DNA of 64,000 bases from an uncultured Candidatus Peribacteria bacterium (GTDB taxonomy: Bacteria; Patescibacteriota; Gracilibacteria; BD1-5; UBA2023), in the NCBI GenBank assembly GCA_964540725.1, contig CAZINU010000004.1, positions 12,233 to 76,232 of the forward strand, written 5' to 3'. The position numbers and the translations under genes were made by a program. Shown piece after piece: positions 1 to 64,000 of the stretch. A model generated the notes under the pieces. That model had not been told where the DNA came from. It made no database searches and worked only from the letters and a program-made list of their open reading frames with translations. The first letter of the stretch is position 1. Every line of letters begins with the position of its first letter.

Positions 1-189
1 TCGGACGGTTCGGCCTACGCCGCGTTCGTCGACCGGGTGAACGTCGACCGCATCTACCTCTATCGGAACGGTTCGTATTCGTTCGTACCGGTTTCGAAGA
101 GCGTCCGCGACCTTCTTTCCCGCCGGGTGCTCGACATTCTTTCCGACCCCCGTCACAACCCGAGCCTTTCCGACCGGATTTCCGCGTAG
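1..189 (+). CDS. 3' end of an unidentified CDS (5' part lies outside the window)
   Basis: Frame 1 is open from base 1 and ends at TAG 187-189. Codon usage resembles neighbouring genes and a hairpin follows. No recognisable motif. Confidence 0.4.
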   Translation, partial: SDGSAYAAFVDRVNVDRIYLYRNGSYSFVPVSKSVRDLLSRRVLDILSDPRHNPSLSDRISA

Positions 190-268
190 ATTCGGCGTCC
201 GCGTTCGGCGGATCGTCCGTCCGCGAACCGGGAATCCTTGATTTTTCGGCATTCTCCGTACTATGTCC

Positions 269-308
269 AGGCCGTTTCCTTCCGGAAATCGGCCTTTCCT
301 TTTGTTTT
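269..308 (+). terminator. Putative intrinsic terminator
   Basis: Imperfect hairpin aggccgtttcc/ggaaa(t)cggcct followed by a T-rich tract, about 80 nt after the TAG at 187-189. Confidence 0.4.
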
Positions 309-321
309 CGGAAAGATTTTC

Positions 322-396
322 GCCCCTGTAGTTCAGCGGATAGAACAAGGCACTCCTAAGGCTTAGACACAAGTTCGATTCTTGTCGGGGGCACCA
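322..396 (+). tRNA. tRNA-Arg (anticodon CCU), CCA encoded
   Basis: Cloverleaf folded by hand. Acceptor GCCCCTG/CGGGGGC, D arm GTTC-AGCGGATA-GAAC, anticodon loop CTCCTAA (U33, CCT, A37), T arm ACAAG-TTCGATT-CTTGT, discriminator A plus CCA. There is one 31:39 mismatch in the anticodon stem. Confidence 0.8.
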
Positions 397-438
397 GTCT
401 TCTTTAAAAACGCGAACTCCTTCGTTGATGGAAAAAAA

Positions 439-739
439 TTCGCCCACCGTACCAGCACGTACGACTCGCTAGAATTTTTTTCCATCGCCTCGGATTTCAT
501 CGTTTTAAAAGGAAGACGGAACTTCTTGAAAACCGTCGGCCTTCGGGCTCCGTTCTGCGCTTCGCGCTCACCGTACCGGCACGTACGACTCGCTTGCGAT
601 GCTCGAACGTCGCCCGAATTCCTCGCGTTTGAAAGGTTTCCGACGATTCCGGCCCGTTGCCGAATCTCTCGGTTTTGAGAAAGTTTCTCTTGAAAGGAGG
701 ACTGAATTTTCCGAAAACCGTCGGCCTCCGCGTTCACCG
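439..739. repeat. Dispersed imperfect direct repeats in the tRNA-to-CDS spacer
   Basis: A 26-nt core caccgtacc[a/g]gcacgtacgactcgct occurs at 445-470 and 569-594 (1 mismatch). gaaaaccgtcggcc occurs at 528-541 and 713-726. Confidence 0.6.
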
Positions 740-763
740 CAACAATACTTCCAACACTTCCGA

Positions 764-2086
764 ATGGATCCCGCGTCTCTCCTGTTTTTCTGCTTCCTCG
801 TAGTTCTTTCGGCCTTCTTCTCGTGAACTGAAATTGCCCTCATGACCGTTTCGAAACACGCGATAGGGGGGTACGTCAAAGCGGGAAAACTGGGCGCCAA
901 GTCCCTCGCGAGGATTAAAGAAAAAAATGACCGGCTCCTGATCGTCATCCTGATCGGAAATAATTTGGTCAATGTCGGGGCCTCCGCGCTCGCGACCGTC
1001 GGTGCTTTGAAGATTGCCGAATCCCTCCGTCTTCCCGGCGAGTACGGAATCGCCCTCGCGACCGGAGCGGTTACGCTCATTCTCCTGTTTTTCGGGGAAA
1101 TTACTCCGAAATCGATCGCTTCGAAGTACGCCGGTGCCGTAGCCCTCGCCGTAGCGCCCGCATACGAATTCCTCATGACGGTCCTCTTGCCCCTGACCGT
1201 CGTTATCGAATGGTTCATCCGCGGAATTCATAAACTCTTCCGAACCCATTCCGACGGACAAAAGATGTCCGCTGAAGAGCTCGAGGCCTTCTTGGAAATT
1301 TCCCATGAGAGCGGAGCCGTGGAGACACACGAGCACAAGAAAATACGGGGGATTCTCGACCTCTCCGAAACGGAAGCCGCTTCGGTCATGACTCCTCGCG
1401 TAAAAGTGGAATTCGTCGGATTCGACGCGACCGTCGACGAAGCGGTGGAAACGCTTTTGGCCGCTTCGCACAGCCGCCTTCCCGTTTCCGGAAAGGATAC
1501 CGATGACGTCGACTACGTCGTCACGCTCCGGGAAGTCGTCGGTTGGCAGAAGGCCGGACTCGGGAGTGCGCGCCTTAATCAGCTCGAACTCGAAAAAATC
1601 ATCAAAATTCCGCTTACGAAGCCGCTCGACCAGTTATTCGAAACGTTTCAGAAATCCCGAAAACACATCGCGCTCGTCATGGACGAGTACGGCGGCGTCG
1701 CCGGGGTCGTAACCCTCGAGGACGTCGTCGAAGAGGTGTTCGGTGACATTAAGGACGAAAAAGACCGTGAAGAGGTGTACGTCCGTCGCATGGGCGACGG
1801 TTCCGTCCGCGTCAAGGGCGACGTGACGGTCGAAGATGCGTTCGAGCCTTTCGGTCGCGTCGATCTCGCTTCCCTCGGAATCGACGAGTACGAAAACGAA
1901 ACCGTTTCCTATCTCGTCATTTCCTTGCTCGGAGCCTTTCCTAACCAGGGTGAAACCATACGGCTTTCTCCTTCGGACGACGGATGCACCTTCGAACTGA
2001 CCGTGGAAGGAATCGACGACAATGCCGTAACGGATGTCCGTTTAATACGGACGTGCGAGCCAGAAAACGGCCGCTCCAACCGATAG
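764..2086 (+). CDS. CNNM/HlyC-CorC family transporter (DUF21 + CBS pair + CorC_HlyC)
   Basis: ORFs 599..826 and 842..2086 share a frame and are joined by TGA 824-826, giving the DUF21 motif SAFFS-G-TEIAL. The CBS region and C-terminal CorC_HlyC-like domain follow. ATG at 764, TAG stop. Confidence 0.85.
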
Positions 2087-3786: not shown

Positions 3787-3837
3787 GTCGGGGCGCGTCC
3801 GTGATTCGCCGGCGCGGATACGGATCCGGCCAAAAGG

Positions 3838-9632: not shown

Positions 9633-10835
9633 ATGAAACGTTTCGCGCTCTCCGCGATTGTCGGACTCGTCGCCTTCTCGGTTCCGGCCGCATTCGCCGC
9701 GCCGAGCATGGAAGACTACACCTACGTCGACTGCCATAACGGCCAAGACTCCACGGCCGTTCCCTTCGACCATACCAAGCCGTACAGCACGCTCAAGGCG
9801 GCTATCGAGGGCAGCATCAACCATATCAACGCGAATTGGAACATTCCCGCCAACGCCCAAGCGGTGCTTTCGAAGCGGTTCGTCATCAAGGCGAAAGCGC
9901 TCTGCGTGTTCGACGGGTACGGGGCGAACGGAATCCGGCTGAATTTTTGAAACGGAAACGTGTATCACAATGATCTTTTCATTACTTCCGACGATACCGC
10001 AAAACCGTTCTGAATCCGTGGATACTATTTTTACGATTCCCAGATTGACGGGTACGCGAATCCTCGTTGAATAACCTTTGACTCGACGTATTTCATGGGA
10101 AGTTCCGCGGCGGCCGGAAATTCGTATTTCCGAATAAATTCGAACGGAATCGGCATTTCGAATAGCGTCATTACGATGGGGTCATCGCCCATGTTCCAAC
10201 AGCAGACTTGGAAATACCCCTACTGCAACGTTTCTTGGTGCGCGTACGCCCCGAATCCCGCGAATGCGAAAATCTCCAACTCCCTCATCCGCATTACCGG
10301 AAACCAGAATGCCGACACGAACTTCCTCATGCCGGGTTCCATCGAGAATTCGAAAATCGAGTTTACCGTTCCGAACGGGGCGAACGGAAAACTCATTCTG
10401 AATGCCGACGGAAGCAATTTCCTCAACCTCATCAAATCCACCCGCTTCGACCTGGGAGGCAAGAACGTCCACGTGAACGTCGACGTCGTAAACAGCCAAT
10501 TCACGAACTTCGGCACCTTTACGGCCGCCGGAGGTTGGAACGTCTTCACGAACAACACCGTGCTCCAAATGCCCGGGCTCCTTACGGTGAACAATTGGTA
10601 CTACGCGTACAACAACGTCTTCGCGCCGTACGGGATTGCCGATTCGTCCGACCCGAACAACGAGCGGCGGAACCTCCAGACGCCCGCGCAGACCGGCGGC
10701 GTTGGGTGGAGGTACCGCAAGGCCCTCGGCACCTACCTCGAGCAGAATTTCACCGACGCCACCCTCCGCAACGAAGCCGCGCCCGGAAGCGCTTCCGGCG
10801 AAACGTTCACGCCGACGTACCCGATCTTCCAATAG
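9633..10835 (+). CDS. Secreted protein with beta-helix-like repeats
   Basis: ORFs 9633..9950 and 10095..10835 are in one frame, joined through TGA at 9948, 10011 and 10068. Signal peptide MKRFALSAIVGLVAFSVPAAFA. Recurring xNSxI motifs (ISNSVIT, ISNSLIR, IENSKIE). TAG stop. Confidence 0.65.
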
Positions 10836-10855: not shown

Positions 10856-13800
10856 GTGCTTCCGACTCGGATTTTTCGACCGACGAAAGCCTTTCTGGCC
10901 GCCTTCTTGGCGATGGGATTCCTTTCGGTGAGCGTCGTTTCCGCCAACCCGGCGGTGTGAGGCCGCGCAGCTTGGAACGAATGGGACGGAAGCAGCCGTT
11001 CGGTCGTGCTGGATATCGACGCCCAGAAACGGACGGATTTGTCACTCCCTCCGGATTCGTACGTCGTTGCTATTTTCCGTGACGAAGGCATCGTGTACCA
11101 ACGGTGGGATGCCGGAACGTCCATGTCCGTATGCATATACAGGGATTCGGCTACGGGCGCCGAACGGACGCTTTTTTCGGACGGATGGCTGTCGTCGTTC
11201 GATCCCGAAACCGGAAACTACACGTATTCCGTATGGGGCGACGGCATGAGTCGCACGTACCGCGCAAACGTTGAAACGGACGTCGCGCCCACTCTCGTGC
11301 TCGCGGAGCCGAATGCATGAATCCAACAGTATTCCTCCGATCTCTCCCATGCGCTTATAAATCGGTACGATCCATTGACTGGATCGAACTCCATATATCT
11401 CAGGAACCTCGCTACCGGCTCGGAACGGCTCCTCGGTCCCTCGTATTCCGATTCGCCCGAATACTATTGGAACGCTTTCTTCGCCTTCTTCGGCGGATCG
11501 AACGACACCGTTGTCCGCATCGCTCGGGAATATCGAAAAAGCGACTGGACGCTCTCAGCACACTCGGGCGCCATTCTCGACGCGACGGATCCTTCGGCCA
11601 TTTCCGAGAGTCCGGCACCCATGAATTTCGGCCCCTACGGGTACTATGTCGGGTATAAGGGGAATCGGCATTTCTATGTCGTTTATGACGAAAATTGGAA
11701 CTCTTCCACCCATACCTATTCTGACGGCACCGACTCGGTCGTATTGGATGTGGGGAAATACCTCATGTCCGATTGACAAACCGGCCGTATGCCATGATAC
11801 GGCGATATTGTCGCCTACTCGTACTGGGATTCCGCATCGTCGAAAAACGTCGTGGAATGGATGAACGTCGCCACTTCGGCTACGGGTTCGATCGTTGACG
11901 GATGGGTGGACTCCAAAGCCCTCTCCCTCCGCCCTTGGAAAGACCCGTACGACCCCCTCGTCTTCTCGAACCCCATCGGGTGGTATTCGCCGCAGGCGTC
12001 GAATCCGGACGGAACGGCGTTCGAAAACGTCGCGTATTCGGGCGTGCTCGGAACCGCTCTCGCGGCCGAATCGATTCCCTCGTGGACGGGCGGCGTATTC
12101 GAATCGGGTGCCGGCCCCATGGGCGCGTACGCCACCATGGCCGCGGTTCCCGAATGGGCCGCTACGGCGTTCTCGTTCGAGGGTGGCAGCATCGGCTCGT
12201 ACGGATTCCGGGCCGAGTGGCTTCCGGCGTTCGCCTCCGAGGGATTCGCGTCCGCCGGTACGCTCGTAGGATCGTTTGGGATTCCTTCGGCATCGTGGCC
12301 GGAGTTCGGCTCCGGAACGTTCCTCGCGGAAGTTTCGGCCCCGGTGGGAAGCTTTGGCGCGCCGCTTTCGAGCGTTCCCCACTGGTCGGAATACCAATTC
12401 TCCCGCCTCGCCTCCCAAACCCCCGCCTCCGCCGCGCCGTTCTCCGGCACCGGCGGCGAATCCGTCCTCGCCGCCCGCGACGGCAACGGCGACGTCCTCG
12501 CCGAGGCCCAGGCGCCGGACAAGGACCTCATGGACCCCGTCGACCCCGCCACCGGCGACTTCCTGTACGAAAACGCCTTCCTCCGGCTCGCCGGAGGCCG
12601 CGAACCCTTCGAATTCTCGCTCTCGTACCGCTCCTCCGCCGGGTACGACGGCGCCTCCGGCCATGACTGGATCCACCCGTTCGAGCGCAAAATCCTCCCC
12701 GCCGCCGACGGTTCCGCCAAATACTCCGACGGCGAGGGCGGAACCTGGACCTTCGCCGCCTCCGGCACCGGGTACGCCCGGTCGGAAGCGCTGAAGGCCG
12801 GGCTCTCCCGCACCGGCTCCGGCGGGTGGCTCCTCTCGATGCGGAACGGCCGGACGGAAACGTTCGACCCCGACGGCCTCCTCGAAACCGTCGCCGACCC
12901 CGACGGCGTCCTCTTCTCGCTTTCGCGCGACCGGTACGGCAACCTCGCCTCCGTCGCGGATTCCCTGGGGCGCGTCGTCCGCTTCGAGAACGGCCAGGAC
13001 GGCCGCGTCGCGAAGGTTTCCGACCCCCTCGGCCGCGAAGTCCGGCTCTCGTACGCCTCGCAAACCGGCGCGGCGGCGACGCCCGGCGACCTCGTCTCGG
13101 TCTCCCTGTGGTACGGCACGGGCGCCGAAAAAACCGTCTCCTTCGGGTACGGCACGGGCGCGCACGACCTCCACAAGATCGTTTCGCTCACCGATTCCAA
13201 GGGGCAGGAATACGTAACCAACGGGTACGGCGCCGACGGCCGCGTCGCCTGGCAGCGGTACGGAGAAGGCACGGGGTTCTACTCGTACGTCCTTTGAAGC
13301 GTCCACGAAGACGATACGCCCGAATCCGCCGGCACCGGCCCCGTCGTCGGCGCGTACGTGGAAAAAACCGTCGTCACCGACCGCCGCGGCAACGTGACCG
13401 AATACGCGTATTCCCGCGCCGGCGCCCCGCTTTCGCGCACCGAACTCGGGTACGGCTCCGGAACCCTCGCCACGTCGTGGGCGTACGGCGCCGACGGCCG
13501 CGTCGCCTCGGAAACCCGGCCCGACGGAAGTTCGACCCTGTATTCGTACGACCGAGACGGCAACGTCTCCGAAGAGCGCCTCCGTTCGTCCGACCCCGCC
13601 GACGCCGACGTCGTCGTCCGGTACGGATGGGATTCCGAAGGCCGCCTCGCGGAAAAAACCGCCCCCGACGGTTCCCGGACGCTCTACTCGTACGACGCTT
13701 CCGGCCGCCCGACGTCGGTGGTCGCGGCCGCCGTCCGCCTCTCCGCGACCGGTTCCGCCGACCTCGGAACTTCCTTTTCGTACTCCGGCGGCTACCTCTC

Positions 13801-16800
13801 CGCGAAAACCCTCCCGGACGGCTCGCGGACGGAGTATTCGTACTCCGGCGGACTGCTCGCGGAAGTTACGGATTCCCTCGGAACCCTCCGCTACGCGTAC
13901 GACGCCGCCGGCAACCCGACGGCGGTCACGGACGCGGAAGGGAACGTTACCCGCTCCGAATTCGACGCCTTCGGCCGCGTCGTGAAAACCGTTTCCCCGG
14001 AAGGCCTCGAAACCCGCTACTCGTACGACGCCAACGACAACCGGATACGGACCGAACGCTCCGCCGGCCCCGGAAAAACGGCCGCGACCCGCGCGGCGTT
14101 CGGCCTGCTCGACGAAGTCCTGTCGGAGGAATCCGACCTTTCGGAAACCCTCACGGGCGCCCTCGAGACGCGGTACGACGCCAACGGGGAAGTCGCCGAA
14201 CGCCTCCTCCCGTCCGGCGTCCGCGAGAAGTTCCTCCGCGACCCCGCCGGCCGCGTCACCGAACGCCGCCTCGTCCCCGCCGACGCCTCGGAAGACGCCG
14301 TCGCCCGGTACTCGTATTCCGGCGGCCTCCTGGCGGAAGAAACCGACCCCCTCGGCCGGAAAACGGAATACCGGTACGACGGCTTCGGCCGGCTTTCTGC
14401 GGAAATCTCGCCCCTCGGCACCGAAACCCGGTACTCGTACGGGCCCTCCGGCAAACCCGTCCGCACCGACGTCCTCGACGCTTCCGGCGCCCTCGTCGCC
14501 CGATCGGAATCCGAATACGGTTCCGGCGGCCTCCTCCTCGTCGTCCGGTCCGCGGCGGTGGAAAACGGCGCCCCGGCCGGGGGAGCCCTCGAAACCCGTT
14601 ATTCGTACGGCCCCCTCGGAAGGAAAACGGAAGAAACCGCCCCGGGAGGGGGCAAGACCCGCTACGCGTACTCCGGAAGCCTCCTCGCTTCCGTCACGGA
14701 CGCGACGTGAAACCGCGCGGAATACCGGTACGACAAACGCGGCCTCGTTACCGAAACCCTTACCGTCTGAACCGACGGCACGGTCCTCGCCACCCGCCAC
14801 GCGTACGACCGCGACGGCCGCAAGACGGAGGAAACCGCCCCGGACGGCGGAATTACCCGGTACGGATACGGCCCCCTCGGCGACCTCGCCTCCGTCACCG
14901 GCCCCGAAGGAAACCGCACCGAATTCCTCCGCGACTTCCGCGGCCTCGCCACGGCCGAAACCGACGCCCTGGGCGGAACCGTTTCCGCCGGGTACCGCGC
15001 GGACGGCAACCGCGTTTCCCTCTCGGACGCGGAAGGAAAAACGACTGCGTACGCCTTCGACGGCTTCGGAAGGGAAAAAACCGAAACCCTCCCGGACGGC
15101 TCGGAGTACCGAACCCGGTACGACCTCGCGGGCAACGCCGTGGAAACCGAGGACCCGGCCGGCAACCGCGTGACCCTGGAATACGACGCGGAAAACCGCC
15201 TCGTCCGCAGAACCGCCCGAACCGCTTCCGGAACCGTCGGACCCGCGTGGGAAAGTTTCTCGTACGGCCCGCTCGGCGAACTGCTCGAAGCGCGGGATTC
15301 GGACGGCAACGCCGTGGCGTTCTCGTACGACGGGTTCGGAAGGAAGGAGGCTGAAACCCAAAACGGGAAAACCGTCTCGTACGCGTACGGAAACGACGGG
15401 CGGATTTCCTCCGAAACCCTCCCGTCCGGAAGGGTCCTGGATTACGCCCGGGACGCCCTCGGGCGCCCGACGGGCATGGCGGAAGGTTCCGGCCAATCCG
15501 CCCGGACCCTCGCCCAATACCAGTATTCCGGCCCCTTCCCGTCCGGAACCCTCCTCGGCAACGGGACGGCCGAATCGCGCCTGTACCAAAACGGAAGGCC
15601 CGCCGCCCTCGCGCTCTCCGTGCCCGGAAGCCAGGCCCCCCTCCGCGCGTACTCGTACGCGTACGACCGGAATTCCAACCCCCTCTCCGACGGGGAGGGC
15701 GGGTACGCGTACGACGCCCTCTCCCGCCTCTCGTCCGCCGGATACGGGACGGAATCGGAATCCTTCGCGTACGACCGCGCGGGCAACCGGACCGTCCGGA
15801 CGTCCACGGGAACGGAAACCGGAACCGCGGACTACGCGCGGAACCCGCTCGACCAGTACCCGGAAATCGCCCGAACCCTCTCCGGAGGAACCCAGACCGG
15901 CTCGTACCGCTTCGACCCCAACGGAAACCTCGTCGAAACCGACCGGCTCGTCCTCGAGTACGACTGGCATAGCCGCCTGAGGAAGGTTACGGAGAAGGAA
16001 TGGACCGAAACGGGAAGCCTCGGGCCGCGAATCCCGGAGGCGTATTTCCTGGGATCGGAGACGGGGAGCGGTTCGGAAACGGGCACGGGAACCGGCACCG
16101 GAAGCGGCGCCGAACCCCCGCCGGATTCCGGCAGCGGCAGCGGCACGGGAACCGGGGAAACTTCGACCGGGACGGTCCTTCCCCCCGATACCGGAACGTG
16201 AGCCGGAACGTGAACGTGAACGGAAACCGGGTCGGGCTCCGAAACTTGAACGTGAACGGCGGAAACCGGGACGTGAGCCTGAACCGGAAGCGGGGCGGAG
16301 ATCCCGCCGGAAACGGGCGCCGGTACGCAATCCAGCACCTGAACCGGAACGGGCGGAACCTCGTCCGGGACCGGGGAAACCTCGTCGGGAAGCTTTTCCG
16401 GCACCGGAACCTTCTCCATCTTCCACCCCGCCCGAATCCTCGCCGAATACGCGTACGACCCGCTCGGCCGCAGGATTTCCAAAACCACCGAGAATGCCGT
16501 CACCAAATGGCGCTACTCCGGTGAAAAAATCGTCCAAGAGACGGTCGAGACCCCCGTCGGACAACTCCTCCGTACCTCCGAATTCGCGTACGGCCCCGAC
16601 GGGGACGACGTCGTCGCCGAGTTCCGTACGGAGAACGGGAATCCCGAGGAAACCCGCTACTTCCTCAAGGACCGCCTCTGAAGTACCGTCGCGGTCACCG
16701 ACGGCTCCGGAAGCGTGCTCGAAGAATACCGCTACGACCCCTTCGGCAAGACGTACCGGAAAACCGCGGAAGGAACGTGGGAAGCCCTGAAGCCCGGACG

Positions 16801-18170: not shown

Positions 18171-18182
18171 TTTTAGATCCTT

Positions 18183-18617: not shown

Positions 18618-18660
18618 ATGACGGAAGGGAACGGTCCGTCCTTGAAGGACATCGCCCACA

Positions 18661-18693
18661 AAACCCCCTCCGAATCGGTTCGGAGGGGGTTTT
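18661..18693. terminator. Bidirectional intrinsic terminator
   Basis: aaaccccctccgaa-tcgg-ttcggagggggttt perfect hairpin between the orphan fragment and the convergent gene. Confidence 0.6.
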
Positions 18694-18704
18694 CAATATT
18701 CTTT

Positions 18705-45814: not shown

Positions 45815-45847
45815 ATCCGCAGGATGGTACCATCCTGCGGATTTTTT
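45815..45847 (+). terminator. Intrinsic terminator
   Basis: atccgcaggatgg-ta-ccatcctgcggat perfect hairpin followed by a T6 run, directly after trxA. Confidence 0.65.
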
Positions 45848-45859
45848 CTTTCCTCCCAT

Positions 45860-47821
45860 ATGCCCCACTCCCAACGCCCCGCTTCCCCGGAAACCCTTTC
45901 CGGAATCTCCTCTTCCGCCTCCTCCCGCGCCCTCGCCGCCCTCCGCGCCACCCGCTCCCGCGCGTTCCGTGGCTTCACCCTCGTGGAACTCATCGTCGTC
46001 ATCACGATCCTCGCCATCCTCGCCACCATCGGTTTCCTCGCCCTCTCCGGGTACACCTCGGACGCGGGCAGGTCCTCCGTCCTCTCCAACCTCCGCACGG
46101 TGGAGAAGGGCCTTTCCGTCACCGCGACCACCGCCGGCTCCTTCCCGGCCCCGACGGGCGGCGTTCCCGTGACCTTCTCCGGCGGCACCGCCTGGGTCCA
46201 GTGAACGGCCGGAAAAACCGTCATGGCGGAAATATGAATGGACGAACCCCCGAAGGACCCCGCGGGGAACGCCGAGTTCGAATACTCCGTCACCGCCAAC
46301 GGTCTCGAGTTCCAGGTTGGCTCCGCGTACCTCGCGGGAACGGCGCACGCCCCGGCCCCCGGAATCCCCTCCGCCCTCGCCGCGGACTCCGTCCCCGTCC
46401 CCAAGGCCGCCGTCTCCGGCAACTACAACGGCCTCTTCGTCCCCGTGAACGCCGGCGGGACGAACTTCCTGGTCCCCGCCCCGTCCATAATCCTCTCCGA
46501 CCTCTCCGTCCCCGAGCTGAAGTCCGCCCCCGCCTCCGGCCCCTCCTTCGTGGCCGACGGCCTCCCGGGAACCCCGGCCTCCTGGTCCGGGAAGGTCGCG
46601 GGCCTTTCCCAGACGGGAATCGCCTTCCCCGCGGCCAAAACCGCCGCCTACTCCTCCGCGACCGAAGCCTTCCCGGCGACGTCGACCGGCGTCGCCGCCC
46701 TCGCGGAAACCCTCGCGCAGGCGTACTCCGGCACGAGCCTCGCCGCCCTCCCGAAGGTTTCCGCGGTCGTGAAAGCCTCCGCCGCCGGCGATTCCTCCGG
46801 CCTCGCTTCCGCCGTCGCGGGGGCCGGGGTCTCCTCCCTCGGGCGGAACCTCGCCCCGGCGGTCGCCGCCCTCGCGGGCGACGTCCCCGCCGCCGGCTCC
46901 TCCGGCGGAAGCTCGGGAACGCCCGCGACGCCCGTCGACGGCGCGTGCGGGACTCCGAACGGCCAGACGCTCGTTTCCGCCCCCTCCGAAAACCTCTGTT
47001 CTCCCGGAACCCCCTCGGCCGTCGCCGACGGAGCCTCGTGGACGTGGTCCTGCGCCGGGACGGACGGCGGGGCGACTGCGAGCTGTTCGGCGGCGAAGCC
47101 GGCCGCGACGATCATCGGAAACGACGATTCCGGAAGGGGTTGGTCCGACGGGGCCTACGCCGTTTCGTGTTCCGGCTACCTGAACGCCCCGGCGGGATAT
47201 TCGTACTCCGGGTCTACTGGCAACGGCGTATACCAAATCGATCCGGACGGAGCGGGGGGATTCGCCGCCTTCAAGGCGTACTGTGACATGACGACGGACG
47301 GAGGGGGGTGGACCCGCTTTGTTAAATATCGGGATTCAATCGACCGCTCCTCGGTATGCGTAGCGAAATCCACCGCCGTTTCGTGTTCAGGGTACAAAAT
47401 CGGTTTGAACGGTGAATATTCGGAAATCCTGTTGAACGGTTGCGTCGATGGTGCGAAGACCACTATCCTTGTCGATATTCCACAAGTCATCAAGGACGCT
47501 TGGGTATCGTACGAAGGCGTTGACGGCGTCACTCCCGGAAGCGGGGCGTTCCGTTCGTGCGGCTCGACCGTTTCCAGAAAAGAGGGCGGAACTTGGCATT
47601 ATGGACACGAGCGCAATCCCTCCGCAACAGAATTCGAAACCCTGCACTTCGCCTCTAGCTGTATTAATTCGTGAATAGATTCCTGGTCGTATGCGAAATG
47701 GGGTGCTATCGATGCTGGCAATTCCGATCGAAGTTATTGGGGGACGGTTAACGGAACCGACCACTCTCGGTCATGAGGCGATACGTATTACGATGATTGG
47801 ATTTGCGCTTACGTTCGGTAG
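45860..47821 (+). CDS. Type IV pilin-like protein with a C-terminal fibrinogen-related (FReD-like) globular domain
   Basis: Prepilin signature RG-FTLVELIVVITILAILA. Fragments are joined by TGA at 46202, 46235, 47672 and 47774. Cys-rich module ACGTPNG...LCSPG...WTWSCAGTDGGATASC. FReD-like GVYQIDPDGAGGFAAFKAYCDMTTDGGGWTRF. TAG stop at 47819-47821. Confidence 0.75.
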
Positions 47822-51889: not shown

Positions 51890-53812
51890 ATGAAACGACT
51901 CCTGTTCCTCCTCCTTCCGACCGTCCTCCTCGCTTCCTGCGGTTCCGAACCGCCCGCTTCCGTAAAGAAACGCGTTTCCACCGTTCCCGCCGCCGTCGGC
52001 GTCGTGTCTTCGGGGGACGCCGTTTCCGCGACCGTCGTGGGCGAAAACGTTGCCGAACTGGCCTTTAAAGCGCCCGGCCGTATCGCCGAAATTCTCGTCA
52101 AAGTCGGAGACCGGGTCGAAAAAGGCCAGCTCCTCGCCCGATTGTCGAACGCCGAAGGCGCCATCCAGTCGGGCGGATACGCCGAAATCGTTTCCGGACT
52201 CTCCGACATGCGCCGTTCGGTCGAAAGCCTCTACGAAAGCCGCGCGAACATCGCGGAGGCCGACGTCGCGAACGCGAAGACCCGCGTCGCCCTCGCGGAA
52301 AAAGATTTGGAACTCGCCCGGACCAATCTCGAAAATACCCGCGCCGTCCTTTCGGGGTCGGTGGTTTCGGCGGCGGAACGCGGCATCCAAGCCGAAAAAT
52401 CGCTCGCGCTCTCGAAAACCCAGCTCGCGAACACGGAGAAGCTCCTGGACGAACAGGCGTCCTCCCTTCGGGAATGAGCGCTCGCCGCCATGGCGAACGC
52501 GTTCGTGGTCGCCCGGACAGGGCGCGATTTCGCGGATGAAATCCTCGGCGTAACCGAAACGAATCGGCATAAGAACGACGCGTACGAAACGTATCTCGGC
52601 GCAAAGAACGCCGCGACGGTCGACGCGGCGAAATCCCGGTTCGGAACCTTTGACGCCAAATATTCCCAAACCTACGATTGGTACTACGCGAACGTATCGG
52701 GGAAAGATGCCGTTTCGATGGAGACCGCGAAGGAAGGGCTCGCCCGGGCGACCGAAACGCTCCGCTCCGAACGCGAAGCCCTCCACGCCCTTCGGAACGC
52801 GTTCGAAAATACGGTCGCGGACGTGCGTGCGCTCCCGCAATCCGATCTCGATGCGCTCAAATCTAAAGCCGACGGTATTTTGTCGGGAATCGAAACGTCC
52901 ATCCTTTCGCCGAATTCCGGCGGAACCGACGGAGCGCTCCGGGCTATCGAATCGTTCGAGCGGGATCGGGAATTGAAGGTTTCCTCCTTGGAGGATTCCG
53001 TAAAACTCGCCGAAAGCGGGCTCGAACTCGCGAAAACTGGCCGAATCCTCGCCGGAAGCGACGAAAAAAAGAATCTCGACGCGCTGTCCCTCGCGGTTGA
53101 AATGAAGGCGCGCGAACTCGAACTCGCGAAGAAAGAAGCGGCCAAGGCGACGGAATCGGTCGGAACCCTCGCACGCGAAGCGGATGCGAAGGTCGCCGAA
53201 ATCGAAACGAAAATTTCCGAGGGCGCCATGGCCGGCCGCCTGGCCGTCGAAGCCGCGGCATCCGCGGAGCTCCGGGCCCCGTACTCGGGAATCGTGCTCG
53301 AACGGCGTTTCGATCCCGGTGCGGTCGTGGGCGCCGGAACCCCGGTTCTTTCGGTTTCCGAGGCGGGCGAATTGAAGGCCGCGTTCGACTTCGATTCGAA
53401 AACGACGCCCTTGTCCGAAGGCGAAGCCGTTTCGGTACGTTCCGGAAAAACCGGAAAAACCTTTACGGGCATCCTCGTTTCGGTCGCGGCGACCGATTCG
53501 CTCGAAAGCGCGAAACGGAGGGCCGAGGTCCGGATTCCTTCCGGGGAGGCCGAAATCGGCGACCGCGTAACGGTCCGTCCCGGTTCCGCCGTTCCGGCGT
53601 CGCCTTCCGGCGTCGTCGTGCCCGTTTCGAGCATCGTTACGCGATATTCCTTCCCGTCGGTCTTCGTGCTCCAGAACGGCGTCGCCAGACTGAAAACCGT
53701 CCGGATTTCCGCATCCGACGGCACGTTCGTCCAGGTTGAGGGGATTTCGGCGGGGGAAGCCGTCGTTACCGACGGGAAAGATTCGGTGCTCGACGGGGAG
53801 CGGGTGGAATAA
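51890..53812 (+). CDS. Efflux RND periplasmic adaptor (HlyD/MFP) lipoprotein with a long coiled coil
   Basis: Lipobox LLAS-C. Barrel-sandwich motif AFKAPGRIAEILVKVGDRVEKGQLLARL. Fragments are joined by TGA 52475-52477. C-terminal beta-barrel-like ...VFVLQNGVARLKTV.... TAA stop. Confidence 0.8.
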
Positions 53813-55750: not shown

Positions 55751-56299
55751 CTATGCTCCGCCCCCGCCCGAAACCCATCCGCGAATTTTTTCGCGCGCTT
55801 CCGGCAGGATTTCGCTTTCGAGCGTTCCCACTTCGTCCGGCTTGAATTTCGACAACACCCAATCGGCCGTATCGAACCGGGCGTCCCGCCCGATGCCGAT
55901 TTTGAGCCGGGCGAAATTTTCGGTGCCGAGGTGCTTCGAAATCGACTTCAGGCCGTTTTGTCCGCCCGACGAGCCTTTTTCGCGAAATCGGATTTTTCCG
56001 AACTCCATATCGATATCGTCGGAAACGGCGAGCACGTCCGTTTCGGCGTCGAGCTTGTAGAACGCCATGAATGGCGCGACGGCCTCGCCCGAGAGGTTCA
56101 TGTAGGTGAGGGGTTTCATGCAGAAAACCCGTTCGCCCCCGACCGTTCCTTCCGAGAGGAGGCATTTGAATTTCGGCGCGTCCGAAAAATCGGAAAACCC
56201 GTTCGCGCTCGCGAACGATTCGACGGCGAGGAATCCGGCGTTGTGCCGGGTGTTCCGGTACTCGTTTCCCGGATTTCAGAGTCAGACGACGAGTTTCAT
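55751..56299 (-). CDS. pth: Peptidyl-tRNA hydrolase
   Basis: [23 protein letters not shown], with both bracketed Gly encoded by TGA (56282-84, 56276-78). Joins ORF 55751..56119 in frame to give 182 aa. Confidence 0.9.
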
Positions 56300-57503: not shown

Positions 57504-59084
57504 ATGTCAGAACCGACCGCTTCCGACGAATTTTCCGTCCGCCTTGCCCGCCTTGCCAAAATCCGTTCCCTCGGAATCCCTGCATACCCGGCTTCGTTCG
57601 GGAAGACCCACGCCGCCCTTCAAATCCTCTCCGAATCCGAGGGGCGCGATTTCCGCGCCGCCGAGGACGTGATTGCCAACCCCGCGAAAGACGTTTCCGT
57701 TGCCGGCCGCATCGTGCTCTTCCGGTCGTTCGGAAAGATCGCGTTCGCCACGATCCAGGACGATACCGGCCGCATTCAGGTCATGTTTTCGAAAGAACGG
57801 TGCGCTCTCTGCGTAAATGGGGAAACGAAGGAATCCGTGTCGGGAGACGAAGGCGAGGTGTCCGCGTTCAAGTTCGCCGAAAAACTGCTCGATTTGGGCG
57901 ATTTCATCGGCATTCGGGGCGAAGTGTTCCGTACCCACAAGGGCGAATTGACCGTTTTCGCGACCGAATTCGAATTCCTCGGAAAGGCTCTCCGCCCGCT
58001 CCCGGAAAAGTTCCACGGGCTCGCGGACGACGAGGTGAAGTACCGGCAGCGGTACCTCGAACTCATCAGCGACGACGCCGTCATGCGCCGGTTCCGGTTT
58101 CGAAGCGACCTCGTTCGGAAGCTTCGCGAATTCTACTGGAAGGAGGGGTTCACCGAAATCGAGGGACAAGTCCTTACGAATGCCGCGACCGGCGCCGCCG
58201 CCAAGCCGTACGTCACCCATCAGGACGCCCTCGATATCGACGTGTTCCTGCGCATTTCGCACGAAATCCCCTTGAAGCTCCTGAACATCGCGGGCATGGA
58301 GAAGGTTTTCGAACTCGGCAAAGCCTTCCGGAACGAGGGACAGGACCCTTCGCACCTTCCCGAACACCTCCACCTCGAACATAACTGCAACTACTGGACG
58401 TTCCGCGACAACATGGCGTTTACCGAGAAGATGTTCGATTTCCTGTTCGACGAACTGGGCCTCGAACGCAAGCGGAAAATTCTGAACAAGGCCGGCGAAC
58501 TCGTCGACGTCGATTTCACGACCCCGTGGAAGCGCGAGGACTACATCGAGATGGTAAAGCGCGACTCCGGACTCGACGTATCGAACTACGACGACGTCGA
58601 ACGGCTCCGGGCCGACATCGCGGCGAAGGGGATCATTATCGAGGGGATTGAAAAGATGGGACTCACCACGCTCATCGACTACCTGTACAAGAAGGTTTCG
58701 CGGCCCAAAATCGTCCACCCGACCTTCCTCTACAATTACCCGATCCAACTTAAGCCATTCGCGCGCCGGAACGACGAGAACCCCCACCACGCCGACGCGT
58801 TCCAACTCGTCGTCAACGGATGGGAGCTCATCAATTCGTACAGCGAACTCGTCGATCCGGTCGACCAGGCCGAGCGCTTCGCGGCCGGCGAGAAGGCCCT
58901 TGCCGAAGGCGACGAAGAAGCGATGACCGGCGACGCGGAATTCGTTCGGGCCATGGAGTACGGCATGCCGCCCATCTCCGGATGGGGCATGGGCGTCGAC
59001 CGACTCGTCGCGCTCCTCACCGAACAGAACAACCTCCGCGACGTCGTACTGTTTCCCCTAATGCGACCGAAACATGAAGCGTAA
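57504..59084 (+). CDS. lysS: Lysyl-tRNA synthetase (class II)
   Basis: OB-fold N-domain. Class II motifs (FRNEG, ...GWGMGVDRLV...). TAA stop. Confidence 0.95.
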   Translation: MSEPTASDEFSVRLARLAKIRSLGIPAYPASFGKTHAALQILSESEGRDFRAAEDVIANPAKDVSVAGRIVLFRSFGKIAFATIQDDTGRIQVMFSKERCALCVNGETKESVSGDEGEVSAFKFAEKLLDLGDFIGIRGEVFRTHKGELTVFATEFEFLGKALRPLPEKFHGLADDEVKYRQRYLELISDDAVMRRFRFRSDLVRKLREFYWKEGFTEIEGQVLTNAATGAAAKPYVTHQDALDIDVFLRISHEIPLKLLNIAGMEKVFELGKAFRNEGQDPSHLPEHLHLEHNCNYWTFRDNMAFTEKMFDFLFDELGLERKRKILNKAGELVDVDFTTPWKREDYIEMVKRDSGLDVSNYDDVERLRADIAAKGIIIEGIEKMGLTTLIDYLYKKVSRPKIVHPTFLYNYPIQLKPFARRNDENPHHADAFQLVVNGWELINSYSELVDPVDQAERFAAGEKALAEGDEEAMTGDAEFVRAMEYGMPPISGWGMGVDRLVALLTEQNNLRDVVLFPLMRPKHEA

Positions 59085-59967
59085 ACCGTCGGGCTGAATC
59101 CTTGCGTGCAAAGTCGGATCCTCGTCCGTCGTTTCGGGTGCCGAAATCGAACGGGGGGAATGAGGGCGGTACGTCTTCCGAACGCTTTCCCCCACGATCT
59201 TGGCCGTCGCTTCGCAAGTGAACGTCATTCTGTCCCAGGGCGGGAAAGTCGCGATCGTTTCTTCCGGGGCCGTCGCGCTTGGGAAGATGAAAACCGGCTT
59301 CCGTCCCGAAGCCGACGTTCCGGAATCGGAGCTCGCCCGTCTCGCGGCCATCGGACAACCGTGGCTCATGACCGAGGTTTGGGCCCGCGCATTCGCCAAG
59401 TACGGTCGGATGGTCGGACAAATCCTATTGGTAGACGACGATATCGAAGCGCATCCCGAAAATCCGCACGACCGACGGTTCCGAGGAGAGGCCAGGGAAT
59501 CGTTTCTCCATACCGTGCATCGGCATTGGGAACACGACGACGTCGTCATTATCAACGCGAACGACCCGATGGCCGAACGCGGCGAATTGGCGCAACTCTC
59601 GAACGTTGCCGACAACGACCGCCTCTCTTGTACCGTCGCGACCGAGCTCGGTTCCGACCGTTTCGCCATGATTACGGACCGTCCGGGCGTCTTGAAGACC
59701 CCAGACAAACCGGATTCCGACCGGTATCCGGAAATCCACGTATCCACCATTCTCCACGGGGATCGGTCGAAATTCGTCCGACACGATCCGAACAAGGCCG
59801 TTCGGAGCCGCGGAGGCATGGATTCGAAGCTCGAGCAGGCAGCTTTGTTTGCTAAGGCAACTGGGAACGCCGCCTTTATTTCCGACGGATTCGACGACTG
59901 TCTCGTCGAGTATTTCCGAAACGGAAGCGGTCATCCGATCGAACGGGGGACTTTGATCATTCCGTAA
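59074..59967 (+). CDS. proB: Glutamate 5-kinase-like amino-acid kinase (no PUA domain)
   Basis: ATG 59074 overlaps the lysS end. TGA at 59095 and 59161 are read as Gly. Motifs KVGSSSV, VSSGAVALG, NANDPMAE, NDRLS, GGMDSKL. TAA stop. Confidence 0.75.
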
Positions 59968-59971: not shown

Positions 59972-60376
59972 ATGGAAACGGTTTCGAGCTATCAAAACGG
60001 CACGATCGTCCGCGTTCCGATCCATTCGGACCCGAAAGCGGCCGAGATTCGGGAGCGGACCCTCCGCGGCTACTACGCGCTCCTTCCAGTCGGTTCGGTT
60101 GGTATCGACATGCGCGGAAATACTTCTGCGCATGTCCATTCGTACGTTATCGACGGACGCGTCCATTTTCTGGACGGTAAAACCTTGGCCGTCTTTTCGA
60201 GGTTCGCCCAATCCCGGCGTTTGACGGTTTTAGCGAAACGGTTGTTCGAAAAACGGGATTACGCGTGATTGGAACGGGAGTACGGCTTCGTTCCGGGAAC
60301 GCTCGTCAGGATTGCCGATCCTTCGATGAAAAACGAGGACGTGTTTCTCGAATCCGTCCTCGCGAACATAGCCTAG
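59972..60376 (+). CDS. Hypothetical protein
   Basis: ORF 59972..60268 is extended through TGA 60266-60268 to TAG 60374-60376. Confidence 0.45.
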
Positions 60377-61086
60377 ATGCCGAAGTGCCGGAACAGCGTT
60401 TTTCGGTCGGATTCCTGTTTCCGACCTCGGTCGATCGAATTCGCCGCCGCGCCCGGATACGCCGTTACGATCGCGCCCGGAACATGGGAAACATCCCCGT
60501 CCTTTTCGAGCGCGAGGGACAAGTAGCAGTCTTCCGCCCAGAAATGGAGTCCGAGCTCGAATCGGATTCGAACGAACGGCTCAAGCCCGCCCAGGCGCCA
60601 GTAGGATGATTTTTTGCATGCGAAATTCGCGCCCCAAAAGTAGAAATGCCTCCAAGGAAGGAATTTTCCCGCATCGAAGAACCAGAACGACGCGAGATTT
60701 CCGAAGAGGTCGTCCTTGAATCGGACGGTCCCGCCCGTTGCGACCGTTTTGGACGAGTCCAGGGGCGCCGTGACGTTTTCGAGCCAATCGTCTTTCGCGA
60801 CGGAATCCCCGTCGATGCAGGCGCAAATTTCGTGTCGGGCCAATTCGAACGCCCGAATCCGCGCGAAAATCGGTCACATGCCCTCAGTCCGATGCTCGTC
60901 GACGCGGAGGCTCGATAGGCCGAGCCGTTTCCCGGCAGTTCGGGCGACTTCGGCCGTACCGTCCGAACAGTTGTGCGCGACGACGACGATTTCGTCCGGC
61001 CGGACGGTTTGCCGCGAGAGCGATTCCAGGCATTCGCCGATGCGTCCGGCCTCATTGTGGGCGATGACGAGGATGCTCCGTTCCAT
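60373..61086 (-). CDS. Glycosyltransferase family 2
   Basis: ORFs 60874..61086 and 60373..60843 share one frame and are joined by TGA 60874-60876. Motifs ILVIAHNEAGRIGECLESL and ICACIDGDS (DxD). TAG stop. Confidence 0.8.
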
Positions 61087-61089
61087 AGG

Positions 61090-61548
61090 CTATCGCAAAC
61101 GGTTCAGATCGTCCGTTGCTTTCTGGATTGCCCGAACGTTTATTCCGTCCACGTGCCCGCCATCCACCGGCATTCCGTCCACGGAATTTTGAAGATTGAC
61201 CGGATTGCCCGACTTCAGAGCGCGGGAAACGGGGCTGATTTCCGAAACGTCGAGATCCCAAAAATCAGCCGCCGTCACCTTTCCCGGGGCTTCAAGCGCT
61301 CGGTTCGACCGTTCGGAGATCCTTAATCGGAGGGTCGCGACGCTTTCGGCAATGAGAACGTGGAGGAGGATGAGCGGGGTTCCGGGGACGGCGATAAGGA
61401 AGTTTTCCACGAATCGTCTCAGATCGTCCAAATCCGGGAGGGATCAAACCCCGGCCTCGGCTGCGCGTATTTCGTTTTCTCGGAATCGAACGCAAAGCGC
61501 GTGGTTGTCGTACCGGCAGGTAACGCGTTCGGAAAAATTCGGGGACAT
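61090..61548 (-). CDS. Hypothetical protein
   Basis: ATG 61548. TGA 61444-61446 is read as Gly. TAG stop. No motif recognised. Confidence 0.45.
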
Positions 61549-61606
61549 GGTCGTAATGGTAGGATAACGAGTTTACGTTACTGGGCGGAAACGAAAAGTC
61601 AAATCC

Positions 61607-62176
61607 CTATTCCGAAATTCGGCGGACGGTCACGACTCCCGTCCGTTTCCCGTATCATCCGGAGATTCGGTCCGCGAGTTCCGATACCGGCATGCTTCGT
61701 CGATTCCGTTCGTCCGGATTGGGATCGAGGATGGCAACCGTCCCGGAAGTCCGGTCGAACGTCTCGACGAGCGAATCGTGGATCCAAACGTCGTCGGACC
61801 CCTTTTTTCCGAGGGAATACTCGATCCAAACGTCGTCCCCGGCGCCGAGGCGCCCTTCGAGCCATTCCGGAAGATCCCGTACGAACGCCCCTATCCCCTC
61901 GTGCGCCTCCGCTTCGAGGCTAAGTCCGTTTTCCCGAAAGAACGCGTTCAGTTCGGGAACGATTTCCGTCGTTGAGACGCCTTCGTCGCAGTTTTGGGCG
62001 GTCATGAAGCCGAACGGTCGCCCATAGATGTCCGCGAGCTTTTCGGGAACCTTCGCGCCGAACCGTTCGCCCAAAGCCTCCTGATCGAAGAGCCTGCCGG
62101 TTCTTCGAAACAGGACCATTTGCAGGCAGGCCATGGCGCAGAGGTAGGGTTTTTGGTAGAGGAGCGGGTAGAGCAT
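61607..62176 (-). CDS. Hypothetical protein, possible C39-like papain-fold peptidase domain
   Basis: The N-terminal YLCAMACLQMV resembles a C39 catalytic-Cys context. TGA 61655-61657 is read through to TAG 61607-61609. Confidence 0.4.
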
Positions 62177-62251
62177 ATCGAAAAAATATTTACGAACCTT
62201 CTAAATGCAAAAAGAAAGGCCCCAATGGGACCTTTCTTCGAAAAAACCTTT

Positions 62252-64000
62252 CTACTCTTCGTCTTCTTCGAACTTGATACCGCGTTCGGTGCGGATTTTT
62301 TCGGTGATGTTCGACGGAACCGGGTCGTAGTGCGAGAATTCCATCGTGTAGGTCGCGCGCCCTTGGGAAGAGGAGCGGAGGTCGGTGGAGTATCCGAACA
62401 TTTCCGAGAGCGGAACGTAGGCGCGGATGATCTTCGCCATTCCGCGTTCGGTCATTTCGGTAATCTGACCGCGCTTGGAATTGAGGTTTCCGAGAACGTC
62501 CCCCATGTATTCTTCCGGCGTGTTCACTTCGACGAGCATGATGGGCTCGAGAAGGATCGGCTTCGCCTTCTTGGCGGCCTGGCGGAAACACTTGATGGCA
62601 GCGAGCTTGAACGAGAGTTCGTTCGAGTCGACGTCGTGGTAGCTACCGAAGGTGAGCTTGGCGCGGACGTCGACGACCGGGTATCCGGCGATCATACCGC
62701 GGGCCCATGCTTCGCGGAGGCCCTTTTCGATGCCGGGGACGTATTCCTTGGGAACGACGCCTCCGACGATCTTGTTTTCGAAAACGTTTTCCTCCTTGAA
62801 TTCCGGATCGGCCTTGCGTTCGTCCGAGGAGATCGGTTCGAAGGTAATGACGACGTGTCCGTACTGTCCGCGTCCACCGGTCTGCTTGGAATGCTTGGTA
62901 TCCTGGTCGACGACGGTCTGCGTGATGGTTTCGCGGTAGGCGACCTGCGGAGCTCCGACGTTGGATTCGACCTTGAATTCGCGCTTCATGCGGTCGACGA
63001 TGATTTCGAGGTGGAGTTCTCCCATTCCCCAGATGATCGTCTGTCCGGTTTCGGCGTTCGAAGTGACGCGGAAGGACGGGTCTTCTTCGGCGAGCTTATT
63101 GAGGGCCATACCCATCTTTTCCTGGTCGGCCTTCGTTTTCGGTTCTACCGCGACGGAGATGACCGGTTCGGGGAAGACCATGCGTTCGAGAACGATCGGC
63201 TTCGCGTCGTCGCAGAGGGTGTCGCCGGTCTTGGTATCCTTGAGACCGATGACAGCACCGATGTTTCCGGCCGGAATTTCGTCGATTTCCTGACGCTGGT
63301 TGGCGTGCATCTGGAGGAGGCGGCCGATACGCTCCTTCTGACCGGAAATCGGGTTGAGGACGTACGAGCCGGACTTGAGGGTTCCGGAGTAGACGCGGAC
63401 GAAGGTGATGCGTCCGACGAACGGGTCGGTCGCGATCTTGAAGGCGAGCGCGGAGAGCGGTTCCTTCGGATCCTGCTTGAGGGTAATCTTCTTCTCCACG
63501 TCGTCCACGTCGGTTCCAGTGATGGTTCCTTCGTCGACGTCAAGCGGGGAGGGGAGGTAGTCGACGACCGCGTCGAGCACGAGCTGGACGCCCTTATTCA
63601 TGAGCGCGGATCCGCACATGAGCGGGTAGACCGAGTTCGAAATGACGCCGGCGCGGAGCCCCTTCTTGATTTCGTCGACGGAGAGCGTTCCGTTTTCGAG
63701 GTAGGCGTTCATGAGTTCTTCGGTCTGTTCCGCGGCCTTTTCGATAACCTGTTCGCGGAATTTTTCGGCTTCGGCCTTGTGGCTTTCCGGAATCTCGAAT
63801 TCGATGACCTGCTCGCCCATTTTGCCTTCGAACTTGTAGGCCTTCATCTTGATAAGGTCGATGATACCCGAGAAGTCGCCTTCTTCGCCGATGGGGAGCT
63901 GGATGGCGACGACCTTGTTGCCGGCGAGGCGGGTCTTGATGGAGTCGAGCGTCATCTTGAAGGATGCGCCGGTTTTGTCCATCTTGTTGGCGAACGCGAT
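62252..64000 (-). CDS. fusA: Elongation factor G (N-terminus lies beyond the window edge)
   Basis: ...[12 protein letters not shown]... and domains II-V are recognisable. The frame is open to base 64000. TAG stop at 62252-62254. Confidence 0.95.

Follow-up and report, generated by a model that had tools for sequence, protein, structure and literature searches.

Sequence evidence that UGA encodes glycine (genetic code 25) in a GC-rich genome fragment of a likely Gracilibacteria-type bacterium

Sequence evidence indicates that TGA is a sense codon across the 64-kb stretch of DNA analyzed here (hereafter the window), and that it encodes glycine, with the conserved alignment columns in agreement. 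In genetic code 25, UGA is a glycine codon and translation ends at UAA and UAG only. Taken as a whole, the explanation that we consider very probable is that the window derives from a Gracilibacteria/BD1-5-type CPR bacterium using code 25, in which the recoding is ancestral and the high GC content came later. The UGA-to-Gly recoding itself has been known since 2013, and what the data support is the addition of a predicted GC-rich representative to an already known code-25 group.

Homology across in-frame TGA codons

The window is GC-rich (0.595) and contains ~41 CDS (~17,400 codons) when ORFs are bounded by TAA and TAG only, with frames chosen from codon bias and Pfam matches and starts set by hand. 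These genes include 53 in-frame TGAs, spread over 19 of the ~41, while the raw stop-to-stop ORFs include 56, because several of the latter fall upstream of the true start codon. The initial annotation, which had reported about 55 in-frame TGAs, was thus accurate on this count and on all 12 coordinates that it cited (824, 14708, 16679, 16895, 20139, 27601, 30452, 34564, 39746, 40088, 56276/56282 and 60874, each an in-frame TGA in the gene named), but its figure of roughly 25 split genes was somewhat high. Its remark that every CDS ends in TAA or TAG is true (20:20) but a consequence of how the ORFs were defined, so that the actual evidence is homology continuing across TGAs. TGA makes up 3.3% of glycine-family codons (~28 per 10,000 codons), and the glycine content of the window proteins is only ~8%. 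The other codons look standard, with CGA and CGG matching Arg and TGG matching Trp (conserved LysRS columns). The sole tRNA in the window is Arg-CCT; no tRNA(UCA) was found within the 64 kb or in the corresponding Logan contigs, and no release-factor gene (prfB included) within the 64 kb.

Pfam envelopes cross TGAs in at least 10 genes (CNNM, LTD, TrmD, Formyl_trans_C, Glycos_transf_4, Pept_tRNA_hydro, Glycos_transf_2, AA_kinase, PLDc_2, RHS and Imm11), from which it follows, as initially proposed, that the pieces flanking each TGA belong to one gene in one frame, and that TGA is read as sense. None of the Pfam-matched genes required readthrough of TAA or TAG to keep its domains, and no gene was found whose homology stops at a TGA. 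In the CNNM/DUF21-CBS-CorC transporter gene (764..2086, + strand), the CNNM match spans residues 8–190 and the single TGA (824) is residue 21; in trmD (29927..30577, +), tRNA_m1G_MT covers residues 24–212 with TGA 30452 inside; and in a family-2 glycosyltransferase (60373..61086, −), Glycos_transf_2 covers residues 5–166, including TGA 60874, which separates the N-terminal half from the DxD motif. A glycosyltransferase family 4 (WecA/MraY-like) gene (38951..40114, −; TGAs 40088 and 39746) matches Glycos_transf_4 over residues 83–287, with the second TGA inside, and had no match in the PDB. For the amino-acid kinase (glutamate-5-kinase-like) gene (59074..59967, +; TGAs 59095 and 59161), AA_kinase aligns to residues 15–272 of the stop-to-stop ORF, with one TGA inside, and the PDB alignments leave out the N-terminus. 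The Imm11-family immunity gene (17586..18170, +; TGAs 17673, 17988, 17997 and 18162) lies within a low-GC cassette (GC ~0.35) and is matched over residues 39–184 (E=4e-10), two of its TGAs being inside. A lamin-tail-domain surface protein (19800..21938, +; TGAs 20139, 20580, 20955 and 21759) has a sub-cutoff LTD match (25.1 vs. 34.3 bits) at residues 29–122, with a TGA at residue 114; a search for structure homologues covering this column found none.

HlyD_3, HlyD_D23 and Biotin_lipoyl_2 flank the one TGA (52475) of an HlyD/YknX-type membrane-fusion protein (51890..53812, +), and a type IV pilin-like protein that includes a short stretch resembling fibrinogen C (45824..47821, +; Pfam N_methyl and Fibrinogen_C) has TGAs at 46202, 46235, 47672 and 47774, in columns that vary among relatives. 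The YebC/TACO1 family gene (27592..28365, +; Pfam TACO1_YebC_N and Transcrip_reg) has its TGA at codon 4 (27601), in the N-terminus that its PDB alignments leave out, and a hemerythrin-domain protein (44930..45388, +; Pfam Hemerythrin at residues 28–141) at codon 6 (44945), with an uncertain start codon. Three genes have no assigned function: one (61607..62176, −; TGA 61655) has orthologues that align across its TGA; one encodes a large protein of 897 aa (31634..34327, −; TGAs 33716 and 32438), called from its ORF and codon bias with no Pfam match; and one (9633..10835, +; TGAs 9948, 10011 and 10068) is a putative secreted protein with a signal-peptide-like N-terminus and no Pfam match, whose coding status is predicted from ORF length and GC3 only.

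In practice, the default bacterial code truncates or splits the 19 TGA-carrying genes. In public code-11 calls on this organism (Logan contigs, run SRR5011273), the CNNM protein begins past its TGA (414 aa), the HlyD protein is split in two (195 + 440 aa), and Pth is only 122 aa. Because in-frame TGA is rare and spurious ORFs are common at high GC, the coding-density test for recoding is weakened there, and a wrong translation table or taxon label is therefore possible for such genomes.

Glycine at conserved columns

Only seven of the window TGAs lie in conserved columns able to name the residue, and in each solved-structure alignment shown all seven are Gly. Two of them (56282 and 56276) are in pth, encoding peptidyl-tRNA hydrolase (55751..56299, −; Pept_tRNA_hydro at residues 3–177), where both fall in the G-L-G-NPG motif and correspond to Gly in 3 of 3 structures. 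The TGA of fmt (methionyl-tRNA formyltransferase; 37291..38232, −), at 37360 within Formyl_trans_C (residues 205–304), is the conserved G of “GK” in all three structures, and one relative (L083) likewise has TGA in this column. In a PLD-like protein with two HKD motifs (34354..35478, −; PLDc_2 in two stretches), TGA 34564 lies four residues upstream of the second HxK and matches the Gly of “SGGILHAK” in structure 7e0m. The remaining three belong to an RHS/YD-repeat toxin (10913..17554, +) with DUF6531, YD repeats, an RHS core and a C-terminal AHH nuclease (Pfam RHS_repeat E=4e-91, also DUF6531 and AHH), which carries 20 TGAs; those at 14708 (YD-repeat G), 16679 (DxxGS) and 16895 (PxxGRF) are Gly in RHS structures. 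Eight further TGAs of this gene, at 16199–16340, fill G positions of a Gly-Thr/Ser repeat, (G-T/S)n, in which, of 37 comparable slots without a TGA, 26 hold G. An orphan RHS core or C-terminal fragment immediately downstream (18177..18755, +; called from its translation, no Pfam match) has its one TGA (18216) at a DRL-x-S position identical to that of the main RHS gene.

The other columns that could be compared are variable or adjoin an indel. TGA 824 is opposite Ser in both CorB structure chains shown, which marks this CNNM column as variable; distant homologues of the family-2 glycosyltransferase have Leu or Ala at 60874; the 61655 column is Ala, Ala and Glu in the L001, L002 and L004 orthologues; and TrmD TGA 30452 adjoins a 3-residue insertion and is opposite Leu, and is therefore undiagnostic. 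The initial claim that TGA falls on a conserved Gly thus stands for its Pth and RHS examples but not for TrmD or DUF21.

Relatives extend this small sample of the window's own columns. For loci L001–L007, 20 of 32 TGAs are opposite a Gly of the window, as are 185 of 206 for metagenome relatives, and across these 238 relative-TGA/window pairs Gly accounts for 205 while Trp is absent from the residues listed. Overall, UGA columns are Gly-dominated in homologue alignments, which bears out the glycine assignment of the initial annotation.

Relatives, probable origin and alternative readings

The top LysRS matches (68–83% identity) are from MAGs labelled Ca. Gracilibacteria, Patescibacteria or Ca. 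Peribacteria, in which treating TGA as sense lengthens ORFs far more than treating TAG or TAA as sense, and in which TGAs are mostly opposite Gly. In a neighbour-joining tree of BipA (a single protein, without support values or a named JAEDAM01 reference), all loci with signs of TGA as sense (TGA in Gly columns of BipA, or ORFs that become much longer) form a single clade with the window nested inside, and this tree and the MAG labels are consistent with the Gracilibacteria/Absconditabacteria recoding initially suggested. In one clade member, L088 (BipA 68% identical, GC 0.41, 4.85-fold ORF gain when TGA is read as sense), a UCA-anticodon tRNA lies at 7211–7289, adjoining tRNA-Gly(GCC), and carries G1:C72, C2:G71, G3:C70 and U73, i.e., the glycine identity set (PMC8629427).

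The window would accordingly come from the chromosome of an uncultured CPR bacterium, one of Gracilibacteria/BD1-5 type (GTDB class JAEDAM01), a membership that we infer from the BipA tree and the submitters' labels, some of which read “Peribacteria”. By analogy with established code-25 biology and with this one relative, a dedicated tRNA-Gly with anticodon UCA would read UGA, release factor 2 would have been lost, and RF1 alone would terminate at UAA and UAG. The recoding, present in all close relatives, would be ancestral to the clade, and the high G+C (0.595) would have arisen afterwards, with glycine codons shifting to GGN. It is less likely that the clade lies outside JAEDAM01, as some of the “Peribacteria” labels might imply, which would make code 25 wider than currently stated.

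UGA could instead encode Trp (code 4, as in Mycoplasmatales, Hodgkinia and some Eggerthellaceae), the commoner bacterial recoding, and one that Hodgkinia pairs with a GC content of ~58% (PMC8629427); the YebC N-terminus (“MGR-x-P”) can even be aligned by eye, if by no tool, with the Trp of “SKWAN”. However, TGA is opposite Trp in none of the structure alignments shown, nor is Trp among the residues listed for the 238 relative-TGA pairs, conserved LysRS Trp columns are TGG, and the L088 tRNA(UCA) bears the Gly acceptor-stem set rather than the Trp discriminator G73, which together make a Trp reading highly improbable. We regard as similarly far-fetched a standard code in which the TGAs are true stops (in pseudogenes or split genes), assembly errors, selenocysteine codons or sites of programmed readthrough. 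TGA normally outnumbers the other stops at ~60% GC, so that 19 of 41 genes “ending” in TGA would be unremarkable alone, and the public code-11 calls do yield plausible-looking fragments. Against this, in-frame homology persists past every TGA within a Pfam envelope, domains are kept with no readthrough of TAA or TAG, the essential single-copy genes pth, fmt and trmD would all be broken together, and independent assemblies of relatives show the same TGA pattern. Selenocysteine in particular was rejected, as the 53 TGAs are spread over 19 unrelated genes, none of a known selenoprotein family, at Gly rather than Cys columns.

A dual use, in which UGA is mostly Gly but still a context-dependent stop in some genes of a GC-rich lineage whose UGA codons have become rare, is also very unlikely. 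The TGAs at 17546 (RHS) and 18162 (Imm11), each two codons upstream of a TAA or TAG stop, could be leaky or former terminators, but both are inside the low-GC, TGA-rich cassette, homology ends at a TGA in none of the genes, and known code-25 biology does not require a double role.

GC content and comparison with known recoded systems

AT pressure is thought to have enabled the UGA-to-Gly reassignment. Across the clade, TGA usage declines as GC rises: relatives around the window range from 36 to 56% GC, the close ones reaching 0.55–0.56, while TGA-as-sense relatives at 26–33% GC have TGA in 20–70% of conserved BipA Gly columns. The initial comment that such a GC-rich composition is unusual for the group was a fair one, as published values for code-25 bacteria range from 0.21 to 0.53 (PMC8629427). 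It is tempting to speculate that the window lineage is the most GC-rich code-25 lineage yet seen (0.595 vs. this published maximum), which we hold as a tentative and somewhat doubtful proposal. If true, UGA-to-Gly stays fixed once AT pressure reverses, UGA(Gly) falling to ~3% of glycine codons without being lost, and the lineage would be a natural setting in which to test codon-capture theory and to ask whether a recoded stop can drift back toward disuse. The biological point is modest, i.e., that the recoding survives in a GC-rich descendant and that, within the clade, the frequency of TGA follows GC content.

Code 25 is described in Gracilibacteria (BD1-5/GN02) and Absconditabacteria (SR1), which correspond to GTDB class JAEDAM01 (Campbell 2013; Rinke 2013, as cited in PMC8629427). 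The window resembles these bacteria in having UGA at conserved Gly columns with UAA and UAG as the only stops, in its probable CPR-type origin with closest MAGs labelled Gracilibacteria, and in having a relative (L088) whose tRNA(UCA) bears Gly identity elements; as in part of the Gracilibacteria, CGA and CGG remain Arg. It differs in GC content, which lies above the published range and well above the 33% of the BD1-5/SN-2 genome bin (Hanke 2014, PMC4032931), and in the rarity of TGA among its glycine codons relative to its low-GC TGA-as-sense relatives. In keeping a recoded UGA without being AT-rich, the window is comparable to the GC-rich genome of Hodgkinia cicadicola (code 4), but there UGA is Trp and the genome is the tiny one of an insect endosymbiont, whereas here UGA is Gly, and the CPR genome is a free-standing one encoding RHS toxins, pilins and efflux pumps.

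In-frame TGA codons and same-frame homology

With ORFs ended at TAA or TAG only, coding frames chosen by codon bias and Pfam matches, and start codons placed by hand, the window (59.5% G+C) holds ~41 genes and ~17,400 codons. Overall, 53 TGA codons lie in frame, spread over 19 of the ~41 genes, and the coding sequences terminate in TAA (20) or TAG (20). The initial annotation had counted about 55 such codons, which was right, and the twelve TGA coordinates it gave are all in frame and in the genes stated. Many genes are indeed split by TGA, but its estimate of roughly 25 was somewhat high, because several TGAs counted in stop-to-stop ORFs precede the actual start codon (e.g., those of LysRS, GalU, the PHP and HD proteins, an RND pump and a VTT protein). 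Stop-codon usage was dropped as stand-alone proof, since at 60% GC a standard code in which TGA closes 19 of 41 genes would raise no suspicion, and ORF lengths were set aside as evidence because spurious ORFs are plentiful at 59.5% G+C. Long ORFs or coding-like composition also occur, without Pfam match or confident gene assignment, at 41019-42977 (minus strand), 25754-26570 and 35479-36518, and one 603-aa ORF among these stretches has no TGA. Rfam and tandem-repeat scans of the window returned nothing relevant except a tRNA-Arg and a Gly-Thr repeat.

At the level of sequence, we consider homology that continues in the same frame across the TGAs to be the decisive point for TGA being a sense codon. 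Pfam envelopes span TGA for CNNM, LTD, TrmD, Formyl_trans_C, Glycos_transf_4, Pept_tRNA_hydro, Glycos_transf_2, AA_kinase, RHS, PLDc_2 and Imm11, and no Pfam-matched gene in the window needs readthrough of TAA or TAG to keep its domains intact. Standard bacterial code 11 would break pth, fmt and trmD, all essential and single-copy, together. Public gene calls for the same organism, on two Logan contigs of run SRR5011273 (L081, corresponding to window ~362-6727, and L082, which falls within the window at around 48-59 kb), rest on code 11; there the CNNM product begins after the TGA (414 aa), HlyD comes as 195 + 440 aa, and Pth is shortened to 122 aa.

Glycine at TGA columns

In alignments to solved structures, seven TGAs fall in conserved columns, and the residue is Gly at 7/7. 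Both TGAs of pth occupy glycine positions of V-G-L-G-N (3/3 structures), and that of fmt corresponds to the G of the "GK" motif, again in 3/3; three in the RHS toxin gene (10913-17554, plus strand) match glycine in DxxG(S/T), in PxxGRF and in a YD repeat, and one in the PLD gene matches the G of "SGGILHAK", directly before the second HKD motif. The placement of TGA on conserved glycines proposed earlier thus stood for pth and RHS, but its TrmD and CNNM/DUF21 examples were not diagnostic: in trmD the TGA adjoins a 3-residue insertion, opposite Leu, and in CNNM it lies opposite Ser in a small-residue column. PDB searches gave no match for the GT4 and LTD proteins, and PDB alignments of YebC and the AA_kinase protein leave the N-termini uncovered, so that their N-terminal TGA columns lie outside the structure comparison. 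Within the Gly-Thr/Ser low-complexity tract of the RHS gene, 8 further TGAs are each flanked by T, S or A, and comparable non-TGA slots are filled by G in 26/37 cases.

The RHS locus also shows a local shift in composition. Over 17200-18200, which covers the AHH-nuclease tip and the Imm11 gene (17586-18170), GC is 0.34-0.42, against 0.69 before this stretch and 0.65 after it, and TGA density is ~5-7 times the window average (4 in 194 codons). This suggests that the toxin/immunity cassette arrived by exchange with a low-GC relative that uses code 25. Downstream (18177-18755) lies an orphan RHS core/C-terminal fragment that repeats the main gene's "ETRYFLKDRL-x-S...YRYDP.GKTYRK" with TGA at the same position; such a fragment beyond the immunity gene is the typical displaced-tip layout of RHS loci. 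In both the RHS gene (17546, "GWxR*") and the Imm11 gene (18162, "EHxD*"), a TGA stands exactly two codons ahead of the TAA/TAG stop, which may be coincidental where TGA is so frequent, or a vestige of earlier or leaky termination. Elsewhere, a type IV pilin-like protein with an N-terminal methylation motif (45824-47821) carries four TGAs and, near its C-terminus, a short fibrinogen-C-like segment ("DGGGWTRF"), an unusual combination.

Relatives and decoding machinery

Searching GTDB species representatives with LysRS recovered seven relatives (68-83% identity), MAGs labelled Ca. Gracilibacteria, Patescibacteria group or Ca. Peribacteria with loci of 38-56% GC, whose TGAs lie opposite a window Gly in 20/32 cases. 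A BipA search of metagenome contigs added more (58-81% identity), and here TGAs in BipA and EF-G stand opposite a window Gly in 185/206 cases, with Trp absent from the residues listed; Gly makes up ~8% of window proteins. Synteny with relatives near LysRS and BipA is poor, so the window's own TGAs could be compared directly only at Fmt, g61607 (another TGA-containing gene) and a few variable columns. An all-against-all comparison of the loci in six frames suffered from shadow frames among closely related DNA, which set TGA opposite R, S, C and W; it was kept only for cases of overwhelming Gly dominance. On a BipA neighbor-joining tree (a single protein, no support values), every locus with signs of sense TGA (TGA at BipA Gly columns, or a big ORF-length gain on reading TGA as sense) falls in one clade, within which the window is nested next to L083 (GC 0.44) and L084 (GC 0.36), and the sister clade looks standard-code.

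The taxon names under which public MAGs close to this clade are deposited do not look reliable. Peribacteria are expected to use the standard code, and two loci deposited as Candidatus Peribacteria (L002 and L006) read TGA as sense, L006 having it opposite Gly in 262/527 cases; for a third with that label (L033), ORF-length gain was the sole feature examined. LysRS matches at 52-55% identity (L015-L021) are labelled Bdellovibrionota, Deltaproteobacteria or Proteobacteria.

The window's one tRNA is Arg(CCT), and the 64 kb contain no release-factor gene. No tRNA(UCA) was found in the window, nor in the 6.4 and 11.4 kb SRR5011273 Logan contigs, which lie inside it and were reached via exact Der/LysRS protein look-ups. 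A clade member, metagenome contig Ga0172380_10000416 (L088), has a BipA 68% identical to the window's, a GC of 0.41 and a 4.85-fold ORF-length gain with TGA as sense, and its P-loop "IDxPAGSGK" and YmdB "FxDIYG" motifs contain TGA where Gly is expected. This contig encodes a tRNA with anticodon UCA (7211-7289), labelled "SeC" by ARAGORN, directly upstream of tRNA-Gly(GCC) (pair 7211-7383) and ~2.6 kb upstream of bipA; another relative (L109) keeps the tRNA-Gly(GCC)-to-bipA order up to its contig edge. The acceptor stem (G1:C72, C2:G71, G3:C70, U73, with CCA encoded) carries the glycine identity set of Shulgina and Eddy (PMC8629427). By inference, the window's organism would decode UGA with a similar tRNA-Gly(UCA) and would have lost RF2.

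Reading UGA as Trp (code 4) is contradicted both by the aligned residues at TGA columns and by this relative's tRNA. An origin of the in-frame TGAs in pseudogenes, assembly errors, selenocysteine or programmed readthrough is likewise contradicted, since homology stays in one frame over them, the effect is restricted to TGA, the TGA columns are Gly, and the pattern is common to independent assemblies. A context-dependent dual use of UGA as Gly and stop is required by nothing observed, and we regard it as very improbable. The assignment of UGA to Gly, as first annotated, is therefore borne out by same-frame homology, by the conserved columns and by the relatives' alignments.

Composition and place among known codes

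Across relatives, TGA use at conserved BipA Gly columns declines as GC rises, from 42-70% of columns in five relatives of 26-28% GC, through 20% and 62% in two of 32-33% GC, to at most 26%, and zero in most, from 36% GC up; in the window, TGA represents 3.3% of glycine-family codons. The simplest reading would be a single ancestral recoding followed by a later GC rise in the window's lineage.

Published accounts to date confine reassignment of UGA to Gly to the GTDB class JAEDAM01, i.e., BD1-5 and Absconditabacterales (gTranslate preprint; PMC13293708), and the window appears to fit this distribution. Unlike the CGA/CGG-to-Trp change reported for Absconditabacteria, of which there is no sign here, conserved LysRS columns have CGA and CGG opposite Arg and TGG opposite Trp (a small sample). 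The initial remark that the composition is GC-rich for the group also holds, with 0.595 in the window vs. 0.21-0.53 for published code-25 bacteria (PMC8629427) and 33% for a BD1-5/SN-2 genome bin (PMC4032931), although the gap is small because the nearest public relatives reach 0.55-0.56. The window is a GC-rich further case of the known code 25 rather than a new code.
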